Assembly: GCF_017348835.2 (NCBI RefSeq)
Contig: NZ_CP071375.1
DNA from: Escherichia coli
Lineage (GTDB): Bacteria > Pseudomonadota > Gammaproteobacteria > Enterobacterales > Enterobacteriaceae
DNA: 64,000 nucleotides
Direction: 5' to 3' (one strand)
In this document: in pieces, positions 7,105 to 63,297 of the stretch
How the letters are laid out: each line of letters starts with the position of its first letter
How positions within the stretch are numbered: the stretch's first letter is position 1
Notes under the pieces: model-generated
Seen by the model: the letters and a program-made list of their open reading frames with translations, nothing else
The model's database searches: none
What the model was told of the DNA's origin: nothing
Translations under genes and position numbers: made by a program

Positions 7105-7179
7105 TGGCTGGGGTACGAGGATTCGAACCTCGGAATGCCGGAATCAGAATCCGGTGCCTTACCGCTTGGCGATACCCCA
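7105..7179 (-). tRNA. glnX: tRNA-Gln (anticodon CUG)
   Basis: 75-nt sequence whose reverse complement reads TGGGGTATCGCC...CCAGCCA; anticodon loop uuCUGau. Confidence 0.95.
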
Positions 7180-7216
7180 ACTGGGTGCACTTACAAGGTA
7201 AGCGTCTTGAATAAAT

Positions 7217-7291
7217 TGGCTGGGGTACGAGGATTCGAACCTCGGAATGCCGGAATCAGAATCCGGTGCCTTACCGCTTGGCGATACCCCA
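7217..7291 (-). tRNA. glnV: tRNA-Gln (anticodon CUG)
   Basis: Identical 75-nt copy of the preceding tRNA-Gln(CUG). Confidence 0.95.
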
Positions 7292-7339
7292 ACAAATTGG
7301 TTTTTGAATTTGCCGAACATATTCGACACATTCAGAATT

Positions 7340-7416
7340 TGGTGGCTACGACGGGATTCGAACCTGTGACCCCATCATTATGAGTGATGTGCTCTAACCA
7401 ACTGAGCTACGTAGCC
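7340..7416 (-). tRNA. metU: tRNA-Met (elongator, anticodon CAU)
   Basis: 77-nt sequence, reverse complement GGCTACGTAGCTCAGTTGGTTAGAGC...CCACCA; anticodon loop cuCAUaa. Confidence 0.95.
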
Positions 7417-7431
7417 AGATTGTTTCTTCGA

Positions 7432-7506
7432 TGGCTGGGGTACCTGGATTCGAACCAGGGAATGCCGGTATCAAAAACCGGTGCCTTACCGCTTGGCGAT
7501 ACCCCA
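7432..7506 (-). tRNA. glnW: tRNA-Gln (anticodon UUG)
   Basis: 75-nt tRNA-Gln with anticodon loop uuUUGau. Confidence 0.95.
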
Positions 7507-7540
7507 ATAACCGGGCGGTGAACCGCTTACTCGAAGAAGA

Positions 7541-7615
7541 TGGCTGGGGTACCTGGATTCGAACCAGGGAATGCCGGTATCAAAAACCGGTGCCTTACCG
7601 CTTGGCGATACCCCA
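7541..7615 (-). tRNA. glnU: tRNA-Gln (anticodon UUG)
   Basis: Identical 75-nt copy of the preceding tRNA-Gln(UUG). Confidence 0.95.
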
Positions 7616-7638
7616 TCCGTACAACGCTTTCTGGTGAA

Positions 7639-7723
7639 TGGTGCGGGAGGCGAGACTTGAACTCGCACACCTTGCGGCGCCAGAACCTAAATCTGGTGCG
7701 TCTACCAATTTCGCCACTCCCGC
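7639..7723 (-). tRNA. leuW: tRNA-Leu (anticodon UAG)
   Basis: 85-nt class II tRNA with a long variable arm; reverse complement GCGGGAGTGGCGAAATTGGTAGACGCACCAGATTTAGGTTCTGG...CACCA. Confidence 0.93.
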
Positions 7724-7731
7724 AAAAAAGA

Positions 7732-7808
7732 TGGTGGCTACGACGGGATTCGAACCTGTGACCCCATCATTATGAGTGATGTGCTCTAACCAACTGAGCT
7801 ACGTAGCC
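7732..7808 (-). tRNA. metT: tRNA-Met (elongator, anticodon CAU)
   Basis: 77-nt sequence identical to metU; first gene of the operon. Confidence 0.95.
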
Positions 7809-10098: not shown

Positions 10099-10198
10099 TG
10101 CCGGATGCGGCGTGAACGCCTTATTCGGCCTACAAAAGCATGAAAATTCAATAAATTGCAGGAGCTGCGTAGGCCTGATAAGCGTAGCGCATCAGGCA
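10099..10198. repeat. BIME / RIP-like element (two inverted REPs with a conserved linker)
   Basis: REP tgccggatgcggcgtgaacgccttattcggcctac and inverted REP gtaggcctgataagcgtagcgcatcaggca separated by a linker containing aattcaataaattgcagga. Confidence 0.75.
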
Positions 10199-24234: not shown

Positions 24235-25875
24235 ATGGCAATCCACAATCGTGCAGGCCAACCTGCACAACAGAGTGATTTGATTAACGTCGCCCAACTG
24301 ACGGCGCAATATTATGTACTGAAACCAGAAGCAGGGAATGCGGAGCACGCGGTGAAATTCGGTACTTCCGGTCACCGTGGCAGTGCAGCGCGCCACAGCT
24401 TTAACGAGCCGCACATTCTGGCGATCGCTCAGGCAATTGCTGAAGAACGTGCGAAAAACGGCATCACTGGCCCTTGCTATGTGGGTAAAGATACTCACGC
24501 CCTGTCCGAGCCTGCGTTCATTTCCGTACTGGAAGTGCTGGCAGCGAACGGCGTTGATGTCATTGTGCAGGAAAACAATGGCTTCACTCCAACGCCTGCC
24601 GTTTCCAATGCCATCCTGGTTCACAATAAAAAAGGTGGCCCGCTGGCAGACGGTATCGTGATTACACCGTCCCATAACCCGCCGGAAGATGGTGGTATCA
24701 AGTACAATCCGCCAAATGGTGGCCCGGCTGATACCAACGTCACCAAAGTGGTGGAAGACAGGGCCAACGCACTGCTGGCCGATGGCCTGAAAGGCGTGAA
24801 GCGTATCTCCCTCGACGAAGCGATGGCATCCGGTCATGTGAAAGAGCAGGATCTGGTGCAGCCGTTTGTGGAAGGGCTGGCCGATATCGTTGATATGGCG
24901 GCGATTCAGAAAGCGGGCCTGACGCTTGGCGTTGATCCGCTGGGCGGTTCCGGTATCGAATACTGGAAGCGTATTGGCGAGTATTACAACCTCAACCTGA
25001 CTATCGTTAACGATCAGGTCGATCAAACCTTCCGCTTTATGCACCTTGATAAAGACGGCGCGATCCGTATGGACTGCTCCTCTGAGTGTGCAATGGCAGG
25101 CCTCCTGGCACTGCGTGATAAGTTCGATCTGGCGTTTGCTAACGACCCGGATTATGACCGTCACGGTATCGTCACTCCGGCAGGTTTGATGAATCCGAAC
25201 CACTACCTGGCGGTGGCGATCAATTACCTGTTCCAGCATCGTCCGCAGTGGGGCAAAGATGTTGCCGTCGGTAAAACGCTGGTTTCATCTGCGATGATCG
25301 ACCGTGTGGTCAATGACTTGGGTCGTAAACTGGTAGAAGTCCCGGTAGGTTTCAAATGGTTTGTTGATGGCCTGTTCGACGGCAGCTTCGGCTTTGGCGG
25401 CGAAGAGAGCGCAGGGGCTTCCTTCCTGCGTTTCGACGGTACGCCGTGGTCCACCGATAAAGACGGCATCATTATGTGTCTGCTGGCGGCGGAAATCACC
25501 GCTGTCACCGGTAAGAACCCGCAGGAACACTACAACGAACTGGCAAAACGCTTTGGTGCGCCGAGCTACAACCGTTTGCAGGCAGCTGCGACTTCCGCAC
25601 AAAAAGCGGCGCTGTCTAAGCTGTCTCCGGAAATGGTGAGCGCCAGCACCCTGGCAGGTGACCCGATCACCGCGCGCCTGACTGCTGCTCCGGGCAACGG
25701 TGCTTCTATTGGCGGTCTGAAAGTGATGACTGACAACGGCTGGTTCGCCGCGCGTCCGTCAGGCACGGAAGACGCATATAAGATCTACTGCGAAAGCTTC
25801 CTCGGTGAAGAACATCGTAAGCAGATTGAGAAAGAAGCGGTTGAGATTGTTAGCGAAGTTCTGAAAAACGCGTAA
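24235..25875 (+). CDS. pgm: phosphoglucomutase
   Basis: 546 aa from ATG 24235 ([13 protein letters not shown]); phosphoserine loop TPSHNP. Confidence 0.95.
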
Positions 25876-25895
25876 ACACATTAAATAATAAATAT

Positions 25896-25919
25896 CCTCC
25901 GGCATAGCCGGAGGTTTTT
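25896..25919 (+). terminator. pgm intrinsic terminator
   Basis: Hairpin ctccggc-ata-gccggag followed by a T5 run, 20 bp after the pgm stop. Confidence 0.65.
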
Positions 25920-26600
25920 CAAATGCGCCTATAAGGCTCTCTTACCAGCCGCGCCCTAACAGGCGCACACGATCTGACATTTGCATCCAACTTCGTTACT
26001 TACGGCCCGTAAACGGGCTGCCCGGATAGGGAATCGATAACTGCTCTACCATTTTATCCTCTTCAAGCTGGTGCTTTATGTAATCCTGTATCTTCGCCGT
26101 GTTCTTACCCACTGTATCGACGTAGTACCCTCTGCACCAGAACTCCCTGTTCCTGTATTTGAATTTCAAATCACCAAACTGCTCGTAAAGCATCAGACTG
26201 CTTTTCCCTTCCAGATATCCCATAAAGCCGGATACGCTCATTTTGGGCGGGATCTCCACAAGCATATGGATATGATCTGCACAGCATTCAGCTTCCAGAA
26301 TCCGTACACTTTTCCACTCACACAGCTTTCTCAAAATACTGCCTATTGCTCTACGCTTCTCTCTGTAGAACACCTGTCTTCGATATTTTGGCGCAAAAAC
26401 TATGTGATATTTACAGTTCCATCGGGTGTGCGCTAAGCTCTTTTCGTTCCCCATTGGGACCCCCTTTTGATTTCTTGTTTGACACTTGCAGTTGCCAGAC
26501 CGCAAGGTGTTTTAACAAATCAAAAGGGGTTTTAATAACTGGCTCAAAGCTGAAAGCTTTCCGGAACCCCCAGCCTAGCTGGGGGTTTTCTGTGCACAAG
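25920..26600 (-). mobile_element. IS200 insertion sequence (IS200/IS605 family); ends approximate
   Basis: Contains a 152-aa HuH tyrosine transposase and the characteristic IS200 5' leader hairpins; boundaries estimated to about +/-30 bp from the flanking pgm and potE terminators. Confidence 0.8.
25996..26454 (-). CDS. tnpA: IS200 transposase TnpA (HuH Y1 transposase)
   Basis: 152 aa from ATG 26454 (MGNEKSLAHTRWNCKYHIVFAPKYRR...) with HuH motif HIHML and catalytic Tyr in RGYYVDTVG; near-identical to the Salmonella IS200 TnpA from memory. Confidence 0.9.
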   Translation of the reverse strand: MGNEKSLAHTRWNCKYHIVFAPKYRRQVFYREKRRAIGSILRKLCEWKSVRILEAECCADHIHMLVEIPPKMSVSGFMGYLEGKSSLMLYEQFGDLKFKYRNREFWCRGYYVDTVGKNTAKIQDYIKHQLEEDKMVEQLSIPYPGSPFTGRK

Positions 26601-26631
26601 AAAAAGGGCGGTCGCAAGATCGCCCTTTTTT
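26600..26631 (-). terminator. potE-speF operon intrinsic terminator
   Basis: Hairpin gggcggtcgc-aa-gatcgccc with a U-run on the minus-strand transcript, 12 bp 3' of the potE stop. Confidence 0.7.
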
Positions 26632-26642
26632 ACTTTGCTTTT

Positions 26643-27962
26643 TTAACCGTGTTTATTTTTCAGTTCAAAGCGTGGTGATACCAGACCATACAGTGTCCAA
26701 CCGAGGAAGGTCACGATAGAACCGTACAGCATGGCTTCTTCCCCGGATGAGTACAGCGCATAGAAACTGTACATCGCGCCAACAAAAGCAACAAAGTTTG
26801 CAACTTTCGCTTTTGAGGGGGGCACATTAGCGACCTTTTGAATAATGACTAATGCCGCCATTGACAGAATATACGGAATGATATTGGTCACCACGGCCAG
26901 GTTAACCAGCACGTTGAACTGACTGTTTAGCGACGGGCTAATCGTCATCAGCGCCAACCCGCTCTGGATAATCACAATGGTCAACATTCCCTGCACCGGT
27001 GCATCCACTTTGGTTACACGGGAGAAAATTTTAGGGAAGTAGCCTTCATCAGATGAAGATTTAAACACCTGGGCAATGGTGAACTGCCAGCCAAGTAGCG
27101 AACCGCAGCAGGACATCACCATCAGCGCCATAATGACTTTACCCACTTCCGGCGTGAACATCTGCGCGAAGGCCAGACCAAATGGTGCCGTTGAATTTGC
27201 CAGCTCCATATTTGGCACAATCCCGGCAATCACGTTGGTGGAGACGATATAAATCACCGCCGCACCTAACGTACCGCCGAGTACCGCGATTGGCACATTA
27301 CGTTCCGGGTTTTCCACTATATCAGTATTTGCACACGCAGACTCCAGACCAAGAAAAGCCCACAGCGTCATAGCGATGGAAGAACCTACCGCACTGAAGA
27401 ACGGTGCATGATGCGGATTCCAGGAATCAACGTACAGCGTCGGGCTAAACCAGAACCAGCCAATAATGCACAGACCGACGACCGGAATAATGACCCCCCA
27501 CACGGTAATGCTACTGATTTGCCCGGTAATGCGCGCACCACCAAAGTTAGCCACGGTACAAATCCACAGCACCCCGATGGTCGCAAGACCAATCTGCACT
27601 GGCGACAAACTCGCGCCGAGCAGTTCGGTGCCGTAACCAACCGCCGAAATAGCAATCGCGACGTTAGCAATCAGCAGTGAGACGCCGTAGGTATAGTTCG
27701 CCATAAAGTTACCGGATTTACCGAAAGCATACTCGGCATAACCGCCCATACCGCCTGATTTACGGCTGAACATACCGCATTTTGCGAATGCCCATGCCAG
27801 TGCCATTGAGCCTACGGCTGTCACCAGCCAGGAGATAATTGAGATTGTCCCGACTTCGGCAAGCTTTGTCGGCAGCATGATGATACCGGAGCCCATCATG
27901 TTGACCATCGTCAGTATGGTTAACTGAACGACGCCCATTTTGTTCGATTTAGCCTGACTCAT
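26643..27962 (-). CDS. potE: putrescine-ornithine antiporter
   Basis: 439-aa APC-family transporter with 12 predicted helices; recognised as PotE; 4-nt overlap with the speF stop. Confidence 0.95.
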   Translation of the reverse strand: MSQAKSNKMGVVQLTILTMVNMMGSGIIMLPTKLAEVGTISIISWLVTAVGSMALAWAFAKCGMFSRKSGGMGGYAEYAFGKSGNFMANYTYGVSLLIANVAIAISAVGYGTELLGASLSPVQIGLATIGVLWICTVANFGGARITGQISSITVWGVIIPVVGLCIIGWFWFSPTLYVDSWNPHHAPFFSAVGSSIAMTLWAFLGLESACANTDIVENPERNVPIAVLGGTLGAAVIYIVSTNVIAGIVPNMELANSTAPFGLAFAQMFTPEVGKVIMALMVMSCCGSLLGWQFTIAQVFKSSSDEGYFPKIFSRVTKVDAPVQGMLTIVIIQSGLALMTISPSLNSQFNVLVNLAVVTNIIPYILSMAALVIIQKVANVPPSKAKVANFVAFVGAMYSFYALYSSGEEAMLYGSIVTFLGWTLYGLVSPRFELKNKHG

Positions 27963-41309: not shown

Positions 41310-41417
41310 TGCCGGATGCGGCGTGAACGCCTTATCCAGCCTACAAATTTGTGCAAATTCAATAAATTGCAGGAAATACGTAGGCCTGATAAGACGCGTC
41401 AAGCGTCGCATCAGGCA
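41310..41417. repeat. BIME / RIP-like element (two inverted REPs with a conserved linker)
   Basis: REP tgccggatgcggcgtgaacgccttatccagcctac and inverted REP gtaggcctgataagacgcgtcaagcgtcgcatcaggca separated by a linker containing aattcaataaattgcagga, as at 10099-10198. Confidence 0.75.
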
Positions 41418-58762: not shown

Positions 58763-58885
58763 CCGTAGGCCTGATAAGACGCGCAAGCGTCGCATCAGGC
58801 AACCAGTGCCGGATGCGGCGTGAACGCCTTATCCGGCCTACAAGTCATTACCCGTAGGCCTGATAAGCGCAGCGCATCAGGCGTA
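58763..58885. repeat. BIME cluster (three REP units)
   Basis: Three alternating REP palindromes between sdhB and the sucA promoter region. Confidence 0.75.
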
Positions 58886-63114: not shown

Positions 63115-63297
63115 ACTGTAGACCGGATAAGACATTATCGCCTTCTCCGGCAATTGAAGCCTGATGCGACGCTTAACGCGTCTTATCAGGCCTACGGGAA
63201 GCACCGATGTAGGTCGGATAAGGCGCTCGCGCCGCATCCGACAAGCGATGCCAGATGCGACGCTTACACGTCTTATCAGGCCTACGGGTGACCGACA
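63115..63297. repeat. BIME cluster (several REP units)
   Basis: REP palindromes gcctgatgcgacgcttaacgcgtcttatcaggcctac, gtaggtcggataaggcgctcgcgccgcatccgac and gccagatgcgacgcttacacgtcttatcaggcctac in the sucB-sucC spacer. Confidence 0.75.

Follow-up and report, generated by a model that had tools for sequence, protein, structure and literature searches.

A hairpin-rich region between pgm and potE in Escherichia coli is very probably the left-end leader of an intact IS200-group insertion sequence

The IS200 transposase gene tnpA is transcribed from a weak and undefined promoter with a start at approximately nt 40, and the second inverted repeat of the element sequesters its Shine-Dalgarno (SD) sequence (Ellis 2015, PMC4513863). 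In Salmonella IS200, mutations of the lower stem increase the toeprint signal 20-fold and tnpA-lacZ expression 50-fold, while a 90-nt antisense RNA, art200, pairs with the upper stem-loop, beginning at the terminal loops, and Hfq represses tnpA independently (PMC4513863). The same paper cites the left-end hairpin of IS200 as a rho-independent terminator that acts in both directions and protects tnpA from transcription originating outside (Beuzon 1999, via PMC4513863). Furthermore, in Salmonella the 5' part of the tnpA transcript is processed into a trans-acting sRNA (PMC5435999; bioRxiv 10.1101/2024.06.26.600842).

Two other transposon systems offer instructive parallels. The RNA-IN/RNA-OUT pair of IS10 likewise consists of a transposase mRNA and a cis-encoded antisense RNA, which acts at the mRNA 5' end, starts pairing at a terminal loop and blocks the 30S subunit, but IS10 encodes an unrelated DDE transposase. 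Compared to IS10, IS200 adds an intramolecular SD trap and direct repression by Hfq, and its antisense pairing is restricted to approximately 40 bp of the upper stem-loop. The transposition mechanism of IS608 and ISDra2 is part of the established knowledge of the IS200/IS605 family, and these elements share with IS200 a Y1 HUH transposase, the absence of both terminal inverted repeats and target duplication, a same-strand hairpin near each end, and a short target that adjoins the left end, with insertion on its 3' side. They differ from IS200 in several respects: the hairpins of IS200 are perfectly palindromic and have 3-nt loops, IS200 lacks TnpB, and its target is a T-run located after a terminator hairpin, as opposed to TTAC or TTGAT.

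The region considered here, 26455-26590 of the 64-kb stretch of E. coli DNA that was analysed (the window), very probably forms the leader at the left end of an intact IS200-group element on the minus strand. This insertion sequence is 711 bp long, of the IS200C type, and occupies 25887..26597, as judged from the comparison with an empty site and from ends shared among copies. The empty site, found in an E. coli O157 genome, reads ACACATTAAAT-AA-GAAAAAGGGCGG; aligned against it, the window carries 711 extra bases with a 2-nt AA ambiguity, which places the left end at 26597 and the right end at 25887 and reveals no target duplication. When five further copies in other contexts were compared (four from E. 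coli and one from a Y. pestis plasmid), the GTGCACAGAAAAC...GGAGGATATTTATT ends proved to be common to six independent copies and the sequences diverged outside of them. The shared ends and the divergence beyond them define the element as 26597..25887 on the minus strand, although the T-run that flanks it leaves the boundary uncertain by 1-2 nt; the numbering of Salmonella IS200 fits if nt 1 is set at 26598. The two termini, GTGCACAG... and ...ATATTTATT, do not form an inverted repeat.

The sole open reading frame of the element is an intact tnpA (25996..26454, minus strand), which encodes a Y1 (HUH) transposase of 152 aa. Its product matches Pfam PF01797 (Y1_Tnp) with 127.4 bits against a cut-off of 23 over profile positions 2-121 of 121, and the HUH motif H61-I-H63 as well as Y125 can be read off the translation; Y125F is the change used to obtain a catalytically dead TnpA control (Ellis 2015, PMC4513863). 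RefSeq likewise annotates an IS200/IS605-family tnpA at the same locus of an identical E. coli genome (strain PE164, NZ_CP114128.1). The element therefore combines the traits of the IS200 group, namely a Y1 transposase as the only gene, a length of approximately 700 bp, neither terminal inverted repeats nor a target site duplication, and subterminal hairpins at both ends. Transposition through single-stranded DNA, with TnpA acting on the hairpins, is a trait of the IS200/IS605 family and is predicted for this copy as well. No second IS200 copy was found within the 64-kb window.

With published coordinates and the Rfam consensus as the standard of comparison, the correspondence with Salmonella IS200 is close. 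The terminator hairpin at nt 12-34 of the Salmonella element corresponds to 26587-26565 of the window, the SD-trapping stem-loop at nt 69-138 to 26530-26461, the tnpA ATG at nt 145 to 26454 and the art200 start at nt 153/154 to 26446/26445. As every published coordinate falls on a matching feature and the SD, AAGGGGGU, is the same, the present copy can be considered collinear with the experimentally studied element. The two also share the element type, and the sequence is near-identical to the Rfam consensus over 124 nt. The differences are that the E. coli copy is of the IS200C type and 711 bp in length, as opposed to the 707-710 bp quoted for Salmonella IS200, that its TnpA has an N at position 3, and that a few substitutions occur in linkers and internal loops. 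IS1541 of Yersinia pestis and Y. pseudotuberculosis is 87% identical over the whole element, with its hairpins, SD, candidate art200 hexamers and both ends conserved, and is similarly inserted after a terminator-like hairpin and T-run, but it has a different host, a high copy number and substitutions in the upper stem. It is evident that the leader is ordinary for IS200 and has been described before (Ellis 2015, citing Beuzon 1999). The functions assigned to the present copy are accordingly expected ones, transferred from Salmonella IS200, for which they were tested in Salmonella and E. coli K-12.

The initial annotation of this region had noted a long inverted repeat with arms at 26461-26479 and 26514-26529 and a G+C hairpin at 26567-26585 at the element end; the strings and coordinates of both can be read off the sequence exactly. 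A repeat finder returned arms of 16 nt at 26461-26476 and 26514-26529, which are 94% complementary and 37 nt apart, as well as 10-nt arms at 26565-26574 and 26578-26587, which are 100% complementary and flank a 3-nt loop. The first pair forms the long leader stem-loop (IS nt 70-138; 26461..26529, minus strand), which is evident from the fold, the repeats and the relatives. Within it, a 13-bp lower stem pairs the anti-SD CCCCUUUUGAUUU (26529-26517) with AAAUCAAAAGGGG (26473-26461). The tnpA SD AAGGGGGU (26459..26466, minus strand), which was located in the sequence and is identical to the SD of Ellis 2015, lies mostly within this lower stem, and its G-run is positioned 5 nt upstream of the tnpA ATG. 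The annotation had placed the SD inside a stem directly before the ATG, and the partition function bears this out: the pairing probability is 0.99-1.0 for six of the eight SD bases and 0.10 and 0.85 for the remaining two, and the AUG does not pair.

RNA folding of the minus strand, which the annotation had suggested as a check, yields a stable structure that occludes the SD. The 161-nt RNA from 26600 to 26440 folds with -61.7 kcal/mol compared to -43.4 +/- 4.3 kcal/mol for 200 dinucleotide shuffles (z = -4.2), none of which folds as well; in isolation, the SD-trapping stem-loop has an energy of -32.1 kcal/mol and the left-end hairpin one of -18.7 kcal/mol. That the palindromes arose by chance or are parts of the host potE/pgm terminator has practically no probability, being refuted by the fold shuffles, by the empty site, which is devoid of all 711 bp and thus of both hairpins, and by the shared ends of copies in other genomic contexts. 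Two smaller structures complete the leader. At the reported tnpA transcription start (~nt 40), the centroid fold contains a small hairpin, AAAGCU-UUC-AGCUUU (26546..26560, minus strand), which belongs to the RF01405 consensus structure and is kept by relatives with other stem sequences. The tip of the long stem-loop is an apical stem-loop, UUGCGGU-CUGGCA-ACUGCAA (26486..26505, minus strand), which is supported by both the fold and the alignment and has a conserved G.U pair as well as nearly invariant loop bases. Beyond the leader, codon 3 is AAC in this copy and GAC in most enteric relatives, which cuts a small hairpin around the AUG to 4 bp. A consensus promoter scan recognised no tnpA promoter.

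Presumably, the leader operates here as it does in Salmonella. In a tnpA mRNA that begins at the reported start near nt 40, the anti-SD CCCCUUUUGAUUU would pair with the SD region through the 13-bp lower stem, and transposase would hardly be made because a 30S subunit would be unable to bind an SD held in the stem. The leader structure itself is demonstrated by folding and covariation; the translational block by the stem is a Salmonella IS200 result that we infer to hold for the present copy. The earlier interpretation of these hairpins as IS200 features that lower transposase expression is thereby supported, and it agrees with the known Salmonella IS200 leader, Rfam RF01405. Such a leader would explain the expected silence of the present IS200 copy.

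The conservation of the leader was assessed using 80 loci encoding TnpA relatives of 66-93% identity from Enterobacterales, Vibrio, Desulfovibrio, many Clostridia, Veillonellaceae and Saccharibacteria, with the leader analysis itself comprising 75 relatives from several phyla. For the left-end hairpin, 99% of the cells of its seven pairs are paired among these 75 relatives, and six of the seven pairs exhibit changes on both sides. In a MAFFT alignment that was not fitted to the structure, 96.4% of the cells of the end hairpin and the apical stem taken together are paired, and 201 cells are changed on both sides; the covariation score of the two is 0.58, compared to 0.20 in shuffled alignments (none of 500 reached the observed value) and 0.03-0.08 when the partners were slid. 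RNAalifold, run on the plain MAFFT alignment, likewise recovered the end hairpin and the apical stem, but not the lower stem. Since indels scramble the lower stem in the alignment, it was tested sequence by sequence against shuffled controls. In minimum free energy folds, the SD is paired to a distal upstream anti-SD in 74 of 75 leaders, compared to 317 of 750 controls with shuffled upstream sequences, and the SD stems of the relatives are built from 53 distinct arm sequences. The leader structures are real, selected features.

With respect to antisense control, the annotation had considered art200 not judgeable from sequence. This turns out to be partly judgeable, as the start region, candidate promoter hexamers and a stem followed by UUUU are all present. 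On the plus strand, the coordinates of Ellis 2015 together with the fold predict an art200 (STnc490) antisense RNA of approximately 90 nt at 26445..26534, starting at IS nt 153/154. We assign to it a candidate promoter at 26410..26439, with the -35 hexamer TTTACA (26410-26415), an 18-nt spacer and the -10 hexamer TAAGCT (26434-26439). These hexamers fit the description of Ellis 2015, in which the -35 is good and the -10 hardly recognisable, and a consensus scan called no art200 promoter at TTTACA/TAAGCT. Both hexamers are invariant in Y. pestis IS1541, from which art200 is expressed (Ellis 2015, PMC4513863), and in four copies from Citrobacter, Dickeya, Edwardsiella and Vibrio. The opposite strand very probably makes a 90-nt art200 that would start within codon 3 and end at the plus-strand long stem and UUUU. 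By pairing with the upper leader stem-loop, it would impose a second block on translation; the sequence determinants are present, and its expression is predicted.

The long repeat also has a stable plus-strand fold (-35.5 kcal/mol, z = -5.2). It could be kept mainly as the body and intrinsic terminator of art200, with SD sequestration as a secondary consequence, which would agree with the run of UUUU that follows the plus-strand stem as it should in a terminator and with the observation that in Salmonella art200 is abundant and tnpA mRNA barely detectable (PMC4513863). However, in 58 of the 75 relatives the sense strand of the apical stem contains a G.U pair (G.U versus A.C count, 52 versus 4). 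The corresponding bases of art200 would be mismatched as A.C, and the apical stem has therefore been shaped for the sense strand. Furthermore, irrespective of its sequence, the 3' arm has its end on the SD in 74 of 75 relatives, Firmicutes without a known art200 among them, and the 50-fold rise caused by lower-stem mutations is independent of art200 (Salmonella, PMC4513863). We consider a primarily antisense role improbable and regard the long repeat principally as the SD-trapping structure of the tnpA mRNA.

A practical caution concerns the Rfam family that detects this leader. The minus strand from 26587 to 26464 matches RF01405, "STnc490 Hfq binding RNA", over model positions 1-124 of 124 with 146.4 bits (gathering score, 56; E = 5e-31), and the consensus comprises the three hairpins of the leader. 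However, the model follows the tnpA sense strand from the left-end hairpin to the SD, whereas STnc490/art200 is antisense and covers nt 64-153. Because the model is of the sense strand, a match to RF01405 identifies an IS200 leader and not an antisense gene, i.e. it marks the sense-strand leader rather than the sRNA for which the family is named. The leader could also yield trans-acting sRNAs as it does in Salmonella (5'tnpA and art200), for which no targets are known in E. coli.

The near invariance of the apical loop across phyla would be odd if the loop had no other task than to meet the element's own antisense RNA, which by construction is complementary to it. When each element was searched for a complement of its loop, matches occurred at one place, approximately 520 nt downstream and just past the tnpA stop. 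In the present copy, 5'-UGCGGUCUGGCAACUGCA (26504-26487) can pair with the 3' motif 5'-UGCAAAUGUCAGAUCG (25985-25970; 25970..25985, minus strand), which lies 10 nt past the tnpA stop, to form 15 bp including three G.U pairs with -21.5 kcal/mol as RNA. In 54 of 58 canonical elements, the apical 18-mer has its best downstream duplex partner at +480 to +539, and the same partner location is found in 14 of 14 divergent elements that have quite different loops. As RNA, the loop/partner pairs include CUGCCA/UGGCAG, CUGGCA/UGCCAG, CUCGUUA/UGACGAG, CCCGUCA/UGACGGG and AGCCUAA/UUAGGCU, and a further pair from a divergent element is, in DNA letters, GTCTACA with GTAGAC. The 17 proposed pairs were evaluated in a MAFFT alignment of the leader tip and the 3' region that had been made independently of the pairing; they are 86.5% paired, compared to 21-37% when slid, and their covariation is 0.259, compared to 0.163 in shuffled alignments (none of 500 reached the observed value) and 0.04-0.065 when slid. 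One of these long-range pairs occurs as CG, GU, GC, AU and UA.

Based upon these results, it seems possible, although we hold this only tentatively, that the apical stem-loop has a dedicated 16-nt complementary partner across the element that is kept throughout the group by compensatory changes. Several forms of such an interaction can be envisaged. At the RNA level, it could be a pseudoknot-like contact between the 5' and 3' parts of the tnpA mRNA, for example as a cis competitor or mimic of art200, or it could couple the leader structure to translation termination 10 nt upstream of the motif. At the DNA level, single-strand pairing could bring both ends together for the transposase. Among the long-range pairs, G.U outnumbers A.C by 93 to 51 (31 to 15 in the core), counts that include non-independent events, and this excess leans towards sense-strand pairing but is only suggestive. 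The 3' motif forms no leader-type hairpin; it resembles a target in single-stranded form and not an inverted copy of a site bound by protein. When whole transcripts were folded with nested pairs only, the loop contact had a probability of approximately 0 in most elements, which is uninformative either way because a pseudoknot lies outside of the model. A mini-IS200 that is able to transpose (left end 1-163, right end 566-707) keeps both partners (Ellis 2015, PMC4513863). We found no mention of the complementarity between the loop and the 3' motif in the accessible literature, with the older IS200 papers outside of this scope. If true, such pairing would explain the nearly invariant loop across phyla and would represent a new RNA- or ssDNA-level layer in one of the smallest autonomous transposons; the conserved apical-loop complementarity is the one point here that deserves a specialist's second look. 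Directly after the 3' motif lies a second 3' hairpin, GCGCC-UGUUAG-GGCGC (25951..25966, minus strand; from sequence and alignment), which is present in relatives with other stem sequences.

The hairpin near the left end may have a different primary function than the remainder of the leader. It has the form AACCCCCAGC-TAG-GCUGGGGGUU (IS nt 12-34; 26565..26587, minus strand, with the G+C core at 26567-26585) and is supported by both the fold and the repeats. The initial annotation had described it as a terminator-like stem. The stem is G+C-rich (10 bp, -18.7 kcal/mol), and on the sense side only UU comes after its G+C core. UUUU follows the core in the antisense direction only, and two of these U pair with the A-run; past the hairpin, the sense strand reads GGGGGUUCC, which is conserved family-wide. 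A consensus terminator scan called the left-end hairpin in neither direction. This silence, like that of the scan on the tnpA and art200 promoters, is treated as a caveat and does not count as proof that the signals are missing. With the U-run confined to the antisense direction and the scan silent, the terminator status of the hairpin rests upon the Salmonella experiments. In keeping with those, this G+C hairpin, 11 nt inside the left end, would insulate tnpA from transcription that crosses the end.

An additional role at the DNA level, as a recognition hairpin for TnpA, is indicated by a twin at the right end that has the same GAAAA-CC...GG module. The right-end subterminal hairpin, CCUCCGGC-UAU-GCCGGAGG (25896..25914, minus strand; from repeats and alignment), lies between GAAAAA on its 5' side and AUAUUUAUU on its 3' side, after which the element ends; in relatives, the right hairpin is followed by AT(A/G)TTTATT and then the element end. 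By analogy to IS608 and ISDra2, both hairpins are most likely bound as ssDNA by the Y1 transposase, and the left-end hairpin is thus probably an ssDNA binding site of the transposase as well. It could be argued further that 26565-26587 is mainly a DNA structure for the Y1 transposase in peel-and-paste transposition, with termination arising as a side effect. Such a role could be added to the leader explanation without conflict, and the two compete only over which role is primary. Several observations support it: 1) the hairpins match on the same strand, with CCTCCGGC-TAT-GCCGGAGG at the right end and CCCCCAGC-TAG-GCTGGGGG at the left, 2) the module GAAA(A)-CC[N6]-3-nt loop-[N6]GG is kept at both ends with covarying stems among 54 relatives, 3) the left-end stem is nearly purely Watson-Crick (590 Watson-Crick, four G.U and one A.C), 4) the sense-side U-run is absent in all relatives while GGTTC is conserved, and 5) the A-run before each hairpin could guide cleavage at T-rich sites, i.e. 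the T-run flank on the left and TTATT on the right. The analogy behind the last point derives from a guide role in IS608 that Barabas et al. reportedly described in 2008. On the other hand, termination at the end hairpin is reported to have been observed experimentally in Salmonella IS200 (Beuzon 1999, as cited in PMC4513863). On balance, we moderately favor a primary role of the end hairpin in DNA recognition, with binding by TnpA being putative, yet most likely, for both hairpins.

The location of the element within its host is equally characteristic. It lies between pgm (24235-25875, plus strand) and potE (27962-26643, minus strand), two convergent genes that share a bidirectional intrinsic terminator at 26600..26631, which was identified from repeats, the empty site and a terminator scan. 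Rfam matches to MicX and BjrC174 on this host terminator (26600-26631) have E values of 0.07-0.6, far below threshold, and were dismissed as chance. The left end of the IS abuts the T-run of the potE/pgm terminator, with tnpA oriented as potE, and the same arrangement of left end, terminator and tnpA orientation occurs in all six independent enteric copies examined. Among relatives, a terminator-like hairpin and T-run are found against the left end in 44 of 57 cases, compared to 7 of 159 control windows, and terminator-adjacent insertion has been described as a trend for IS200/IS605 elements in general (preprint 10.1101/2025.07.22.666184). At this site, the left-end hairpin would constitute a second barrier behind the potE terminator. 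The insertion also separates pgm from its own terminator. On the plus strand, the right-end hairpin followed by TTTTT lies 20 nt past the pgm stop and was called a terminator by the scan; the pgm terminator has in effect been replaced by the IS right-end hairpin, and two hairpins are stacked behind potE.

When examining the distribution of the leader, it is evident that it is by no means particular to this locus. Of 5426 complete E. coli genomes, 2471 carry it, the number of places being 9649 and the identity mostly at least 99%, and as it occurs in almost half of these genomes, recognising one such textbook leader matters little in itself. The insertion between pgm and potE specifically is present in 30 genomes.

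When examining the insertion site of the IS200 element, it is evident that its left end directly adjoins a host intrinsic terminator on its T-run side (window 26597-26631). The same placement, in which tnpA and the terminated gene point the same way, was found in all six independent enteric copies (the window copy together with L083, L085-L087, and L089). Among relatives, 44 of 57 loci (drawn from L003-L082) exhibit this arrangement, as opposed to 7 of 159 control windows. The recurrent abutment of left ends and terminator T-runs, both in these copies and in the relatives, therefore implies that IS200 has a target preference for terminator T-runs. In the window, transcription of potE heads towards the left end of the element (26598-26643). 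Sittka et al. (2008) described stable RNAs of ~85-90 nt, STnc290 and STnc440, located directly upstream of two IS200 copies in Salmonella and viewed these as host transcripts with ends at the IS200 terminator. Given the orientation of potE, a comparable fragment could conceivably come from the potE 3' end, even though the native terminator precedes the left end of the element.

At the opposite end, the right-end hairpin CCTCCGGC-TAT-GCCGGAGG (within 25887-25925) resembles the left-end hairpin, and GAAAA precedes both. On the plus strand, this hairpin is followed by TTTTT, 20 nt past the pgm stop codon, an arrangement by which the insertion is predicted to supply pgm with a replacement terminator.

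Within the leader, the apical stem-loop of the long hairpin (26487-26504, minus strand) is complementary to a motif located 10 nt past the tnpA stop codon (25970-25985, minus strand). Among loci L003-L082, which encode TnpA relatives, this partner motif occupies a fixed position in 54 of 58 canonical and all 14 divergent IS200-group elements, and the two sequences covary across the group. No description of this complementarity was found in the literature searched. A small hairpin also surrounds the tnpA start codon (26446-26459, minus strand). Its stem, UCCC/GGGA, is only 4 bp in the window copy because codon 3 is AAC, whereas other enteric copies have 5 bp (GUCCC/GGGAC) and those of Clostridia are longer still (CAUUCA/UGAAUG), with a second in-frame AUG inside the stem.

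The Rfam model RF01405 'STnc490' matches the tnpA sense strand (26464-26587, minus strand), from the left-end hairpin through to the Shine-Dalgarno sequence. Since STnc490/art200 has been described as antisense to tnpA, what RF01405 models seems to be the leader and not the antisense RNA.

An orphan IS200 leader lacking tnpA, diverged to 76% identity, is found on the E. coli plasmid pN17EC0320-2 (L084, 1501-1636). It adjoins iss there, and its location is near that gene on IncF plasmids of the ColV type. Compensatory changes are present in the end hairpin of this leader, but the lower stem has suffered damage.

Other parts of the window hold ordinary features of the E. coli chromosome: a cluster of seven tRNA genes (Gln x4, Met x2, Leu; 7105-7808, minus strand) and REP-type Rfam matches (naRNA4, ES036; 10134-10176, 41345-41387, 58768-58838, and 63212-63282).
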